Positions 3,348-10,242 of a stretch of 24,110 bases of DNA are shown here, one piece after another (position 1 is the first letter of the stretch; every line of letters begins with the position of its first letter). Source of the DNA: a virus (Duplodnaviria > Caudoviricetes); IMG/VR virus record IMGVR_UViG_3300021197_000579, positions 1 through 24,110 of that record; one strand, given 5' to 3'. The notes under the pieces were generated by a model. It had not been told where the DNA came from and did no database searches. It was given only the letters and a program-made list of their open reading frames with translations. The position numbers were made by a program, and so were the translations under genes.

Positions 3348-3810
3348 CCCTGGAATTACAGGGGGCATGACTTTCATACAAGATAACGAAACACACGTTG
3401 TTTGTGAGAGAGTTCCTACCGTTACATATAAAATAAATGGTAAGAACAAAAAGTTTTTAGATTTAATAAAAATAGTTAACAGATTAGATTTATATAAACC
3501 TTACAAAGTATTTATAGAAAAACAACAGTCTATGCCTAAACAAGGTGTTGCTAGTACATTTAAAACTGGTTTTAACTACGGAATTTACATTGGTTCGTTT
3601 GTTGCTTTGGGATTAGATTATAAAGAAGTAATACCAAGGCAATGGAAAAAAGACTTGGGGCTTAAAACATCTAGCAAAGATGAGGCAAGGGAAAAAGCTA
3701 GTGAGCTAATACCCTATGCCTCAGATAGTTGGAAACTTAAATGCGAAGATGGCGTAGCTGAATCAGCCCTTATAGCCTACTGGGGATTGTATCACTCCCA
3801 AACTCCGTAA
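3328..3810 (+). CDS. RuvC-like Holliday junction resolvase
   Basis: GIDPG, FIEKQ, F..G..YG, P..WKK and DGVAESALIA catalytic pattern. Confidence 0.85.
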   Translation: MIICGIDPGITGGMTFIQDNETHVVCERVPTVTYKINGKNKKFLDLIKIVNRLDLYKPYKVFIEKQQSMPKQGVASTFKTGFNYGIYIGSFVALGLDYKEVIPRQWKKDLGLKTSSKDEAREKASELIPYASDSWKLKCEDGVAESALIAYWGLYHSQTP

Positions 3811-5381
3811 GGGTCGAAGGTAGGGCTTTCGGTTAAGTGATTACAGAGCTTAGAAACTCTGTCTTTTTTAGACATATTAGGATAATCAATAGTAAATAGT
3901 TTTGTTTCTAATTGTCCGATTTGTTCTTTGGAGTATTTGTTGAGCCATTTTTCGTCTGGTCTAAACCATAAGGTTGGATTTGAATCGTCACCGATTGCTT
4001 TCTTGAGCGTCTCATCTTGAAGGTCATGTCTTGATATGCCTGTAAGACAACACGCAACAAATAAAGTATTGAGTTCTTCAGTGCTGAGAGCAAGGCAGTA
4101 ATGTAAAGGAGCTGTGCCATCATTGTTGTAAGCTTCAATAGCATTGTCACGATGCTTTGTAATAATTTGCTCGTAATTAGTAGTAAGGTTGTCATTGGGT
4201 TCACTCCCTGATGGAAAGTTTTTTTGGTTGTCTGCGTATATATGACCTACTCTGTTGATGTTTTCGTATGCACCATATCCTAGTTTTCTATGGCATAAAA
4301 GAGCCATCATAAGAGGGACGTTTTTAACATCCATCATACTACACTTAACTTCTTCTGCATAATAACCATTGAGTATATCACGTTGAGGCTTACTCATAAC
4401 TAATGGCGTAAGCTCTTCTGCTTCTTCCATAGATTCTTTGATTTGTTCGTTGTTATCAAATTCTTCTCTAACAACGTAGTCTTCAGCATTTAACATATAT
4501 CTGTATGTGCTGTAGGTAATAACCTTAATCATTTGGCTTTTATCATAATCAGAATCATTCCAAACTTTTTGAAGGTTTTTTGTTTCTGGATTATCAAATG
4601 CATATTCGTCTACCAAAAGTATTACATGATGATAGCCTTCTGTATAAAAGTCTTCTTTCATTTTGTTTAGATGAGCCATTTGCATACGCTCAAAGGCTTC
4701 AAAGTTTGTTATATATTCATTTTCTCCAAACAAATCTTTTTCAATAGCAAGTTCATCTATGTTTGATTTATCTACTTTGAATAAAGCAGAATCTAAATCA
4801 ATCTTTGATGATGTCATAAAGCGTTTTGCTGTATCTGCTGTGTAGTTTTCGTAATCATCTAGGTATTTGTCTTGTCTTTCTGTAGTACCTAGAGTCAAAG
4901 CTTTTGCTACACCAAGATTAAATTCATAGTTACGAAACTTTTCTTTAGCAAGTACAGATAGCTCTGATAAAGATATGCGTTGCTTTACCCAGTTTTCTGT
5001 TTGACCAAACCTTAATCCAACAGATGAGTAATCTTCTCCACCATCAGCTACTAAAGCTTGTATGACATCGCATTCATCAAGTGGGTGCATATCTTCACGC
5101 ATCATATTAGCATGCAAACCGACTTCCTTGTCATTTGAATCTAAGACGATGCAATTAACGGGGGTTGCTTTGTCTTTGTAAATTTTGTTCAAAGCATCAA
5201 GTCTTCTGTTGCCGTCAATAACGTTGAACCCTCTGCCGTTTTTAACAACGACCAAGTTGTGCAATAAGCCTTTAGATTTGATTGAGGCAGCAAGGCTGTC
5301 CAAAGATGAGTCTGAGGCTTTTACCTTACGCACATTGTCTGGCGAGTGCTTTAACTCTTTGAGTGGTATTTGATTTTGCAT
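3792..5381 (-). CDS. Long ParB/Srx-family protein resembling plasmid/ICE leading-region ParB-like proteins
   Basis: N-terminal ParB domain (SPDNVRK, LAASIKSKGLLHNLVV, IDGNRRLDAL, NMMREDMHP), an HTH segment and a C-terminal WFRP...LNKYSKEQI motif. Confidence 0.85.
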   Translation of the reverse strand: MQNQIPLKELKHSPDNVRKVKASDSSLDSLAASIKSKGLLHNLVVVKNGRGFNVIDGNRRLDALNKIYKDKATPVNCIVLDSNDKEVGLHANMMREDMHPLDECDVIQALVADGGEDYSSVGLRFGQTENWVKQRISLSELSVLAKEKFRNYEFNLGVAKALTLGTTERQDKYLDDYENYTADTAKRFMTSSKIDLDSALFKVDKSNIDELAIEKDLFGENEYITNFEAFERMQMAHLNKMKEDFYTEGYHHVILLVDEYAFDNPETKNLQKVWNDSDYDKSQMIKVITYSTYRYMLNAEDYVVREEFDNNEQIKESMEEAEELTPLVMSKPQRDILNGYYAEEVKCSMMDVKNVPLMMALLCHRKLGYGAYENINRVGHIYADNQKNFPSGSEPNDNLTTNYEQIITKHRDNAIEAYNNDGTAPLHYCLALSTEELNTLFVACCLTGISRHDLQDETLKKAIGDDSNPTLWFRPDEKWLNKYSKEQIGQLETKLFTIDYPNMSKKDRVSKLCNHLTESPTFDPYGVWE

Positions 5382-6315: not shown

Positions 6316-6732
6316 CTAGAACGGTATATCGTCCATTGTATCATTTGCAGAAGATGAGGGTTTAGGTGAATCACCGCCCTCTGATTTTCCTGCAAGTCTA
6401 AATGTAGAACCGGAACCAGCTAGTTTGATTTTGAATGAACGATGTTTTTGTCCATCCTTCTCATACTCTTCAATGATTGGAAAACCTTGAGCAAAAACGG
6501 TAGTACCCTTCTTGGCATAAGGTTCAATCACATTGGATACAAGACCCTTACCATTAGAACCATCCCAAGCTTCGAGGCGATACCAGTGGGTCTTCTCCAC
6601 TTTCTCTCCTGCTTTGTTGGTGTAGTTCTCATTGACTGCGACTGAGAGGTTAGCGACCTTAGTGCCATTAACATCCCGAATCTCAGGGTCAGAACCAATG
6701 TTACCAGATACTGTGATTTGTGCGAAGTTCAT
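6316..6732 (-). CDS. ssb: Single-stranded DNA-binding protein
   Basis: OB-fold motifs GNIGSDPEIR, VANLSVAVNE, THWYRLEAW, KG..VF..G and acidic C-terminus DDIPF; start reassigned to ATG 6732 after AAAGGAG. Confidence 0.95.
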   Translation of the reverse strand: MNFAQITVSGNIGSDPEIRDVNGTKVANLSVAVNENYTNKAGEKVEKTHWYRLEAWDGSNGKGLVSNVIEPYAKKGTTVFAQGFPIIEEYEKDGQKHRSFKIKLAGSGSTFRLAGKSEGGDSPKPSSSANDTMDDIPF

Positions 6733-6783
6733 GTCTTTTCTCCTTTTCGTTGACATGTTAAAGGTTGAGGCATCAGGTCTAGC

Positions 6784-6887
6784 CTCAGGTCGTAGCCTCG
6801 CCACTAGCTGTAAGTCAAAAGATAATAATTAAAACGTGTAATGCCATTCTAATTATCCATACAGCCTAAGTATCTACGTCCATTGAG
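6784..6887. promoter_or_regulatory. Long imperfect inverted repeat in the ssb upstream region
   Basis: Nested pairs CTCA/TGAG, CGTAG/CTACG, GCTGTA/TACAGC and GATAAT/ATTATC; a minus-strand TTGACT lies at 6818-6813. Confidence 0.5.
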
Positions 6888-7461: not shown

Positions 7462-7544
7462 CTCCCCGTATTTGGTTGGTAAGGGTGGAGGGAAGGGTTC
7501 GGCTTCCCCCTGAAAGATTTCTCTCTCGATGAGAGAATCTTTCA
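7462..7544. promoter_or_regulatory. Hairpin cluster including a 14-bp stem with TCGAT loop
   Basis: TGAAAGATT(T)CTCTC-TCGAT-GAGAGAATCTTTCA (7511-7544); GGGAAG/CTTCCC; CTCC/GGAG. Confidence 0.55.
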
Positions 7545-7564
7545 AGATGATGTTAGTTGCACAT

Positions 7565-7606
7565 AAAAAAGTGATTCCAAGCCGAGCTTGCCGAGCCTGG
7601 AATCAC
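7565..7606 (-). terminator. Rho-independent terminator
   Basis: Minus strand GTGATTCCAGGC...GCTTGGAATCAC-TTTTTT, a 12-bp stem plus U-tract just after the stop at 7615. Confidence 0.85.
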
Positions 7607-7614
7607 GTTGTTAG

Positions 7615-8226
7615 TTACTCTGCGTATGAAGAATCAGCAGGCATCTCTACAAGACCTGACTCTCTGGCAAAGTCCCAGAAGTCATTCTTGTGTGCCTCGT
7701 ATGTCTCAACTGTAATCTGACCCTTCTTGGCTTGCATACGCTTGACCTTGGGTAAATCTTTGAGCGTAGTGTACTGCCCAAAGTTTACACCGCACTGTGA
7801 TATAACAGTAGGTCGTGTTGTGTATCTGCAAGTCTTGAATGCTTGATTGAGTATCCAATACTGCTGACGCAATCTATCGATATCTCTGTCAATGTCATCA
7901 ATCTTGTTCTGGGTAATCTCAATACCAACATCTGCTAGTACAGCATCTCTGCGTTCCCACTTCTTACGAGTGCCTGCAGCCGCTACTGTATCCATCATCT
8001 TCTCAAACATGCGTGTTACTTGGTCTGCAAGCTTGGCCTGTATGATAACGTCATTACCATCGTCAAAGTGATTGACAAGCTCCATCAAGATAGCATGAAG
8101 ACGTTTGTTCCAAACTGACTGATAGTCATCCTTGGGTAGCTTGTCCTTGCGAAGCTGTTTTGATATAGCTTTCATCACTTCTTCTGTTAGTTCCTGTGCT
8201 TCGTATTTAGTCTGTGTATTCTGCAT
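7615..8226 (-). CDS. Hypothetical helical/coiled-coil early protein (203 aa)
   Basis: Start reassigned to ATG 8226 (MQNTQ) with GGAGG RBS; followed by a terminator. Confidence 0.85.
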   Translation of the reverse strand: MQNTQTKYEAQELTEEVMKAISKQLRKDKLPKDDYQSVWNKRLHAILMELVNHFDDGNDVIIQAKLADQVTRMFEKMMDTVAAAGTRKKWERRDAVLADVGIEITQNKIDDIDRDIDRLRQQYWILNQAFKTCRYTTRPTVISQCGVNFGQYTTLKDLPKVKRMQAKKGQITVETYEAHKNDFWDFARESGLVEMPADSSYAE

Positions 8227-8894: not shown

Positions 8895-9065
8895 TTACAT
8901 ATAACTATTAGAACCCTTGAGGTCTAAAAGTTGATTCACTCTTTTCAAGTCTCCCGACTCTAATGCTTGACGAATCTCAAACTCTTCATGTGATTCGTAT
9001 AGGTCAAGAACATCATCAATGGTTAGAGGTTCTACAATTTCAAATAGTTCTAGTTGATTCGACAT
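8895..9065 (-). CDS. First early gene, acidic hypothetical protein (56 aa)
   Basis: Start reassigned to ATG 9065 (MSNQLELFEIVEP...) after AACGTAAAGGAGAATCAA. Confidence 0.75.
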   Translation of the reverse strand: MSNQLELFEIVEPLTIDDVLDLYESHEEFEIRQALESGDLKRVNQLLDLKGSNSYM

Positions 9066-9137
9066 TTGATTCTCCTTTACGTTAGTTATGTCGCAAACAC
9101 AGACAAGATTTGTTCTGCGTCTATTGTCCACCCACCC

Positions 9138-9693
9138 ACACGATGAAAGGCAATAGTCAAGTGCAGAAGGGATGACCTTCTATCGGGAATCCCCTTGTCA
9201 AAAAAATTAGCTTTACACCCCTGACGAATACTTAATCACAAACGACAATGAGGAAGGGGTGTTCATGTCAAGCGCAAGCTTGACTCAATTATAATAATTA
9301 TTTTGATTCAATCTTTACTTTTGCCGTTTGCCTCGCAATTTATCGTGTAACCTGCAAGGATAATTGAACGACGTAGGGCCAATCATGTGTGTGTGTTCCA
9401 AAGTTGACGAACCCGCATTCGGGTGACAATCACGCCCCTCGATGGGGTGTGAGGGTCAAGTAAGTCGAGGACACGTCCCTTTGCTAGGAAGCTACAAAGC
9501 TAGGAAGAAAGTATGTAACGGAGCGATAGTAGACCGCAAGGGCTACAGCAGAGTGGAATGCTTTGTTCCGTATCTGCAAAGGAAACGGCTCACAGACTTA
9601 CACAACTAAATTATCATACGAGCAAGGCGAGACATGATTCAATAAGGTTCGTAAGAACAAGTTTGTCCACTTGACAAACTAGCGGAGTGCTAA
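9138..9693 (+). ncRNA. Large structured non-coding element (folded ssDNA promoter/origin or large ncRNA)
   Basis: More than 15 mutually compatible helices on the + strand, including long-range 9138-47/9339-48, 9198-209/9295-306, 9215-22/9255-62, 9381-88/9632-39, 9460-66/9595-601, 9478-84/9576-82 and 9518-26/9563-71; GCAA and GTAA tetraloops; no ORF of 60 aa or more. Confidence 0.7.
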
Positions 9694-9749
9694 CGAAGCC
9701 ACAAAAGAAAACAAGAGTTGAATACAAACAATGGGTTAGTTAAGGTGAC

Positions 9750-9780
9750 TTGACAACGAACGACACACCATGTGTATACT
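9750..9780 (+). promoter_or_regulatory. Candidate sigma70 promoter for terS/late operon with 19-bp spacer
   Basis: TTGACA (9750-55), N19, TATACT (9775-80); dyad ACACA-CCA-TGTGT in the spacer. Confidence 0.55.
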
Positions 9781-9807: not shown

Positions 9808-10242
9808 ATGACGAAAGCAAACGAAAGCCAACAAGAGAAGTATAGAGGTGGTTTAGTTCCAATGGATGACATTGAGAAACATGCACCGATAGTGAAAGCA
9901 AGTAATGAAAAGATAACTGAAGCACAACAGGAATTAGTGCATGTTATCTTGCATGATGGTTGCAACCCAACAGAAGCATCAAAGAGACTAGGACGCAATA
10001 AGGCTTGGGCATTTAATACGCTTAGAAAACAACATGTTATCGAGTATAGACAACAGTTAGCTATGATGACTTTGGGATGGGACGCAACACAAGCGATGGC
10101 AACGATGAGAGAACTGTTGAATAGTAAGTCACAGTATGTAAGATTAGAAGCCGCTAGAGACTTGATGGACAGAGCAGGATTCAGACAAGACGTTAAGACA
10201 ACAACGAATACAGCAGTGCAGATTAATTTTAACGTAGACTGA
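9808..10242 (+). CDS. terS: Terminase small subunit (HTH)
   Basis: HTH (ITEAQQELV...PTEASKRLG) and RLEAARDLMDRAG...INFN C-terminus typical of TerS; upstream of TerL; start reassigned to ATG 9808. Confidence 0.75.
   Translation: MTKANESQQEKYRGGLVPMDDIEKHAPIVKASNEKITEAQQELVHVILHDGCNPTEASKRLGRNKAWAFNTLRKQHVIEYRQQLAMMTLGWDATQAMATMRELLNSKSQYVRLEAARDLMDRAGFRQDVKTTTNTAVQINFNVD

Follow-up and report, generated by a model that had tools for sequence, protein, structure and literature searches.

A Conserved, Strand-Specific Fold Beside the Leftward Operon of a Marine Podovirus: A Candidate Single-Stranded DNA Promoter in a Tailed Phage

Introduction

Between the divergent gene arms of a marine tailed phage lies a long intergenic region that is rich in hairpins, raising the questions of which of its strands folds, whether it acts as DNA or as RNA, and what the fold is for. 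The window, by which we mean the whole 24,110-nt stretch of IMG/VR record IMGVR_UViG_3300021197_000579 that was analyzed, is a fragment of a marine podovirus in which the right arm encodes TerS, TerL, portal and capsid, and the left arm encodes small orphans, an SSB, a 529-aa ParB-like protein, a RecE-like exonuclease and Sak, with an XRE/RuvC pair encoded opposite in strand to the rest of the left arm. An initial annotation had placed a single structured element of about 560 nt (9138-9700) between these arms, acting either as a large non-coding RNA, possibly a packaging RNA, or as a compound single-stranded DNA (ssDNA) origin or promoter. The last of these options is now the better supported, and a promoter anatomy can be assigned to it. 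We consider it probable, with modest confidence, that the locus harbors an ssDNA promoter like the Frpo elements of the F plasmid, perhaps also serving as a primer origin, in a tailed phage that lacks recognizable replication genes.

Gene Arms and Relatives of the Phage

The leftward operon begins with a gene for an acidic protein of 56 aa (8895..9065, - strand, start codon at 9065), with similar products of 56-65 aa in 6/7 relatives listed and no match in Pfam or Atlas; as a conserved small acidic first early protein, it is a candidate host-takeover or anti-defence protein. The ribosome-binding site of the operon (9070..9077, -) is likewise kept in relatives. Further along the arm are the SSB (6316..6804, -; PF00436, phrog_44), the long ParB-like protein (3792..5381, -; PF02195) and, by profile match, a RecE/YqaJ-like exonuclease (1866-2732, -) and the annealase Sak (660-1241, -). 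The ParB-like protein matches 796 plasmid records (538 conjugative) versus 5 phage records; the matches listed cover part of the protein at 26-33% identity. A 203-aa all-helical orphan (7615-8226, -) is conserved, with 37 homologues, one of them named from a Pelagibacter MAG; a fold search with it found no match, and it was rejected as a Rep, not being recognizable as one. On the other side of the intergenic region, the terminase small subunit is encoded at 9808..10242 (+; phrog_2538, E 3.4e-07).

A search with TerS recovered 80 loci, of which 67 had enough upstream DNA and were reduced to 40 representatives, referred to here as the window's clade. The nearest cultured relative is Pelagibacter phage EXVC031P Hodr (OQ414635.1; capsid 48%, TerS 35%), and a search with the Hodr TerS gave 80 further loci and 54 representatives, the Hodr clade; an estimated ~1,400 viral stretches match Hodr-type TerS patterns. 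The relatives compared are not independent samples. A host search in genome contigs returned five loci, none giving a credible host, and ARAGORN found nothing in the window.

Among the relatives are five genomes (G001-G005) that are 34-38.6 kb long and 98-100% complete. A scan of 89 of their ORFs (43 from G005, 29 from G004, 11 from G001 and 3 each from G003 and G002), which left out opposite-strand overlaps and most repeated structural genes, found no polymerase, primase, helicase or Rep family. Nickase or relaxase families and RNA polymerase families were likewise without a match in the window and the scanned ORFs, as were rolling-circle initiator families in the 89 ORFs together with 30 ORFs of the window, some of these ORFs being orphans. 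The largest ORFs encode internal virion or tail proteins. One of the five near-complete relatives, G005, carries a tyrosine-type integrase and a repressor (L086:703-1770), indicating that some members may be temperate.

Two Modules between the Arms

Among the 40 representatives the intergenic sequence is a mosaic and its layout is fixed, running from the left start codon through the ribosome site, an AC-rich arm, a variable middle, a GT run and a second hairpin block to the terS promoter. All of the helices listed in the initial annotation occur in the sequence, and in the RNA minimum free energy and/or centroid fold of 9138-9700. The strand-specificity proposed for them is borne out as well, the + strand of 9138-9700 folding as RNA with a z of -5.22 (0/100 shuffles as good) and the - strand with a z of -2.22 (2/100). 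The structure of the proposed 560-nt element is thus upheld; its unity is not, as the element is two separable modules.

Domain 1 is a rod spanning 9096-9397 in DNA folds of the window. The initial annotation had set it at 9138-9348, which captured the internal helices and missed the closing outer stem, in which 9096-9129 pairs with 9358-9397. From its 5' end, the rod consists on the + strand of an outer 5' arm (9096..9129, seen in folds and covariation), the predicted template of a downstream duplex; a spacer stem together with the template copy of a -35 box (9138..9160, with AGTCAA at 9155-9160), placed by covariation and anchor positions; a branched apex (9161..9313) that holds the internal helices described earlier and diverges among relatives; and an outer 3' arm (9358..9397) with the conserved GT run at its end. 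Leftward, the 5' arm is followed directly by the ribosome site and then the start codon of the operon. When DNA folds are computed for the stretch that begins at the left ATG and ends with the GT run, most of those listed show a single rod, L077 excepted.

The fold of domain 1, which is + strand-specific and borders directly on the ribosome site and ATG of the left operon, is conserved with compensatory changes in marine podovirus relatives. Across eight hand-picked relatives of one subtype, with the structure taken from the same alignment, 92.9% of cells are paired and 17/48 pairs carry two-sided changes; none of 500 shuffles scores as high, and slid controls reach 32-52%. The spacer helix (9138-9160 arm) carries two-sided changes in 6/10 pairs. 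The conserved stem is probably other than the AATCATGT/ACATGATT stem of the initial annotation: the GT-rich arm pairs better leftward in 34/40 relatives and rightward in 1/40, and among six close relatives, ACATGATT is changed or absent in five, and AATCATGT is invariant.

Domain 2 (9398..9745, +) is a swappable multi-hairpin cassette, as judged by folding z, covariation and exchange between relatives. On its own, its + strand has a z of -5.43 as DNA and -5.44 as RNA, against -2.00 for the - strand as RNA, and two-sided changes are found in 11/79 pairs (four sequences). Its length among relatives ranges from 152 to 558 nt, and in L182/L185 it is replaced whole right after the GT run, with the arms of domain 1 retained. 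It is likely an accessory ssDNA hairpin cassette, serving as a priming signal or roadblock; RNA made from domain 2 alone is possible. Given this wholesale swapping, the range of lengths and the absence of the c(UUCG)g loop (0 in 45,402 nt of these intergenic regions), a single large non-coding RNA of 560 nt is unlikely. The c(TCGAT)g loop of domain 2 recurs in another hairpin cluster of the early arm (7490-7620), which is not strand-specific (z -2.3 on + and -2.8 on -).

Genome scans gave a mixed picture. A genome-wide 240-nt folding scan ranked the element first in the window, yet at a z of -2.8, and missed the hairpin of Hodr, and is uninformative. In an inverted-repeat scan, Hodr and G002-G004 have the element as their top match, with a score of 156 against a median of 28.5 in Hodr; it ranks third in the window (46) and fourth in G001, and falls outside the top four in G005. 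The same scan of MEP301, K411 and SI2 showed no outlier. Searches of the element by blastn against phages and plasmids found no match.

As the element adjoins terS in the window, it might be a packaging RNA or a pac-site structure tied to that gene, and 13/80 loci (L001-L080) end within 700 nt upstream of terS, which would fit such a role. These contig breaks may equally stem from hypervariability, there is no Rfam match, and in L120, of the Hodr clade, the hairpin is found at the start of the leftward gene, about 500 nt from terS. The L120 hairpin thus tracks the leftward gene rather than terS, and this packaging role, also suggested initially, is extremely improbable. The 13/80 contig ends may reflect assembly breaks in a mosaic region or a nearby genome end.

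The Folding Strand, and DNA versus RNA

Selection for single-strand folding of the + strand, as the initial annotation had proposed, is supported by a G.T bias as well as by the covariation of the rod and of domain 2. When isolated arm mismatches were counted on a strand-neutral alignment, G.T outnumbered A.C by 61:2 in the window's clade, upholding the G.T wobbles noted on the + strand of the window across 40 relatives (35/40 sequences show the bias, 0 reversed), and by 40:4 in the Hodr clade (17/27 sequences, one reversed). A cruder mismatch count gave 191:161 in the window's clade, which is weak, and 137:62 in the Hodr clade. The + strand is the folding strand.

Folding of the + strand might take place in RNA, with domain 2 transcribed rightward from an extended -10, or with the whole rod acting as a 6S-like decoy of polymerase. 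Consistent with this, an extended -10 lies just ahead of the GT run in 23/40 relatives, domain 2 covaries and carries c(GNRA)g loops, and the RNA folding z is -4.9 to -5.4. The c(GNRA)g loops number 25 on + versus 1 on -; GNRA loops with other closures are not in excess (12 versus ~12 expected), so that enrichment is seen only under C-G closure, and c(UUCG)g is missing altogether. G.A mismatches are almost as frequent as G.T (34 versus 61 in the window's clade and 34 versus 40 in the Hodr clade), which also argues against RNA. Stable DNA loops include c(TTTA)g and c(GNNNA)g. The motif GCGNAGC is found 22 times on + versus once on - in the Hodr clade, with no + bias in the window's clade (7 versus 12). 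Hairpins of the GCGNAGC/GCGNNAGC type are described as far more stable in their DNA than in their RNA form, and as occurring at G4, ssiA and N4 sites (PMC13037366). Taken as a whole, the loop types lean towards DNA rather than RNA.

At gathering score, Rfam gave no matches in the window or in 10 related loci, and at E 10 the best E-value in the window was 0.55. The large non-coding RNAs in Rfam include ROOL, GOLLD, IMES, 6S and pRNA. Two 151-nt contigs of metatranscriptome run X1 do fall inside the element (9325-9473 and 9501-9651, depth ~6), out of three contigs placed; no other close match turned up across 20 kb of this genome. The two contigs are not predicted by an ssDNA promoter. As run X1 was picked by matching this very stretch, and its contigs are strandless and may be DNA, with uncovered parts being uninformative, they are only a weak hint of RNA. 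To the left of the rod, no + strand promoter is conserved, one with at least 10/12 matches being seen in 1/40 relatives; the modules are freely swapped, and an RNA does not account for the fixed distance to the left ATG. An RNA role for the + structure is therefore, on the evidence named here, unlikely.

Base composition differs between the arms, third-position C being lower in late than in early genes in 7/7 genomes (G001-G005, the window and Hodr; 0.085 versus 0.162 in the window) and about half in 6/7, by strand-biased mutation or codon selection. This skew was not used as evidence, since the mirror deficit of G is absent and codon selection confounds it.

Promoter-Like Anatomy of the Rod

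Since the left operon lies on the - strand, the + strand is its template, and folding would present the rod as both template and non-template arm of a promoter. A -35-like hexamer, TTTACT (9314..9319, +), lies in the non-template arm and pairs with 9155-9160. A -10-like hexamer, TAACCT (9348-9353), belongs to the non-template side of a predicted bubble (9348..9357, +; from folds and geometry), with its T paired and AACCT unpaired, facing an unpaired 8-nt template loop (9130..9137, +). Between the two boxes, an 11-nt hairpin (9328..9338, +; conserved helix 4) reduces the -35/-10 distance, once extruded, from 28 nt in linear to 17 nt in folded DNA, as also in L002, L003 and L064. In the folded rod, 16-17 steps separate the -35-like duplex from the bubble, which opens with an unpaired A, reminiscent of an open sigma70 complex; for open complexes, a paired -12 and flipped-out -11A and -7T are described (PMC4496690). 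From the geometry of the -10, transcription is predicted to begin opposite T9127, at 62 nt from the ATG.

In the window itself, the two boxes agree with the consensus at only 4/6 and 3/6 positions. Across the 40 sequences, a template-strand -35-like hexamer is found 31 times at 75-100 nt from the left ATG, compared with 2-16 in other 25-nt bins, with search patterns that were chosen after the data had been viewed. The partner of the -35 anchor reads TT[TG]ACN in 22/40 relatives, and is exactly TTGACA in 9/54 Hodr-clade loci. A bubble was called in all but 12/40 of the window's clade and 22/41 of the Hodr clade, and lies 17-20 nt from the -35 anchor in 15/26 relatives with a bubble call. With the bubble as the anchor, -35 matches of 4/6 or better are found at 16-20 nt in 16/28 of the window's clade (control windows 4, 11, 2 and 1, the highest, 11/28, being the 9-13 nt window) and in 11/19 of the Hodr clade (controls 5, 4, 3 and 1). 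On the non-template side, unpairing begins with an A in 18/28 and, in the Hodr clade, 8/19. L120 has no good -35, and has an unpaired ATAAT after a TG.

A conventional source of leftward transcription was sought as well. A leftward double-stranded (dsDNA) promoter of at least 9/12 matches within 130 nt of the left ATG is found in only 1/40 relatives; by contrast, the terS dsDNA promoter is found in 40/40. This late promoter (9750..9780, +; TTGACA, 19 nt, TATACT) has at least 10/12 consensus matches in 40/40 and a 19-nt spacer in 37/40. Spacers of 19 nt are typical of activator-dependent MerR-type promoters, and the late promoter may require a phage activator, for example the XRE protein. In one subtype of relatives, the -35 and -10 are 16-19 nt apart even in unfolded DNA; together with the extended -10, this makes a rightward dsDNA promoter possible there.

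When the folded 3' arm was scanned blind with the consensus, a score of at least 8 was reached in 8/40, and controls were not beaten (5/40 for the folded - strand and 17/40 for the linear - strand). This negative outcome would fit a different explanation, in which primase, PriA or a phage protein binds the rod as a single-strand replication or recombination signal, and its likeness to promoter boxes is a coincidence. That no replication genes were found in the scanned ORFs is in keeping with it, as is the + bias of CGAAG (54:14 and 40:10 in the two clades), given that CCGAAGG is reported to cap the ssiA primase signal (PMC13037366), and that function of sso origins can depend on structure over sequence (PMC4595007). 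Such a signal would nevertheless leave unexplained why a -35-like duplex is kept at a fixed distance from bubble and ATG, and why no other leftward promoter is present, and we regard it as improbable.

Comparison with Known Single-Stranded Promoters and Origins

An ssDNA promoter, the reading preferred here, has precedents on plasmids. Frpo1 and Frpo2 of the F plasmid are described as folding on the transferred strand and rebuilding -35 and -10 boxes, driving ssb and the ParB-like yfjB, and being switched off by conversion to dsDNA, which they can also prime (PMC11541004, PMC9849209, 10.64898/2026.01.09.698686, PMC13370423). As in the leading regions with Frpo1/Frpo2 (ssp1) and in that of ColIb-P9, the phage has a stem-loop on one strand, upstream of genes for an SSB and a ParB-like protein. 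Shared with Frpo/ssp are a stable stem-loop on one specific DNA strand, in folds of the window and in relatives, and a folding strand that templates the downstream genes in the absence of a dsDNA promoter (at least 9/12 in 1/40). The left-arm gene context parallels plasmid leading regions (SSB and ParB-like protein, to which Hodr adds ArdC). Unlike Frpo, the phage element is larger and branched, with a pre-formed bubble and a second cassette, and the genome around it is that of a tailed phage, encoding terminase, portal and capsid, in which no relaxase was found; a blastn search against 72,556 plasmids at E 0.1 found no match. The phage element probably works like Frpo/ssp but is no family member by location or sequence. 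Promoters on ssDNA for host polymerase are known mainly from conjugative plasmids, and the reports cited here describe them for conjugative elements. Titles and abstracts of the literature, with most subscription journals not covered, reported no such promoter in a tailed phage.

Single-strand origins offer a second comparison. The M13 minus-strand origin and plasmid ssoA are primed by RNA polymerase. Together with sso1 of ICEBs1 (PMC4595007), they are orientation-specific multi-hairpin DNA in which structure prevails over sequence, as here. These sso origins serve rolling-circle replicons with a Rep or relaxase, none of which was found in the phage, and the phage element, unlike them, points into an operon with a ribosome site. 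6S RNA, a rod whose central bubble mimics an open promoter, shares the overall shape; unlike 6S RNA, the phage element has no Rfam match, a template arm that runs into a gene, and DNA-leaning loops.

Hairpin promoters in a tailed dsDNA phage are described for the early genes of coliphage N4, with GNA triloops and a link to SSB (PMC13037366). There, a 5-bp stem serves the virion's own polymerase, as opposed to the 300-nt rod with sigma70-like boxes of a phage without a phage polymerase. With N4 comes the alternative that supercoiled dsDNA extrudes the rod as a cruciform, giving the same promoter mimic without any prolonged single-stranded phase. Its GNA-capped early promoters (PMC13037366) speak for such a route, as do the SSB encoded by the phage and the near-perfect long arms of rods in the Hodr clade (fold z -6.4 for the Hodr rod and -20.5 for the L120 rod). 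Extrusion of a 300-nt rod with many bulges and a branched apex would probably be costly, and there is no phage RNA polymerase match, making extrusion a quite unlikely route.

Proposed Mechanism

In the Frpo-like model that we favor, 9096-9397 would fold, once the + strand is single-stranded, into a rod that resembles a sigma70 promoter in its open state; the RNA polymerase of the host would then copy the 5' arm of the rod leftward from ~9127 into the operon for SSB, the ParB-like protein, the RecE-like exonuclease and Sak. The -35/-10 reading and the start near 9127 are inferred; the promoter would presumably shut off once the DNA is double-stranded, and the transcript may double as a primer for the - strand in a phage without recognizable primase, helicase or polymerase. 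Candidate sources of the single strand are end resection after injection, displacement in recombination-driven replication, and single-strand delivery. If this is true, these marine tailed phages use single-stranded DNA to turn on their first genes, and common ocean phages have an unrecognized single-stranded phase that times early gene expression, which may explain replication without polymerase, primase or helicase.

Hodr and Its Clade

Hodr has the same divergent layout as the window, with a long hairpin at the start of the leftward gene that is unannotated in OQ414635.1, has no blastn-detectable sequence in common with the window, and reaches into the coding region. Many Hodr-clade loci have such rods at the start of the leftward gene, longer and of unrelated sequence. 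An anchor matching the -35 pattern is lacking in 27/54 loci, and the long inverted repeat in 3/6 loci checked (L106, L112, L151), so that the rod is not established clade-wide. Hodr encodes ArdC, which is not diagnostic since a T7-like pelagiphage is reported to carry it too (10.1101/410191), and an HTH-DnaT protein that could be an initiator. No paper on Hodr was found among titles and abstracts, most subscription journals not being covered.

A broader, doubtful possibility is that in this widespread marine podovirus family, which includes Hodr, the early arm is single-stranded at entry, either delivered in that form or stripped of one strand at once. A hairpin promoter for host polymerase would then start both transcription and second-strand synthesis, launching a plasmid-style leading-region program (SSB, ParB-like protein, ArdC) with no replication enzymes of the phage's own.

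Two strong inverted repeats are also present downstream of terL in L175, a related contig binned in a MAG, near 2775 and 4475 (scores 102 and 98, median 26.5). In two Hodr-clade loci (L091:12037-12480 and L120:1560-1990), the 3' arm of the rod copies the ribosome site, the ATG and ~60-90 nt of first-gene coding sequence.
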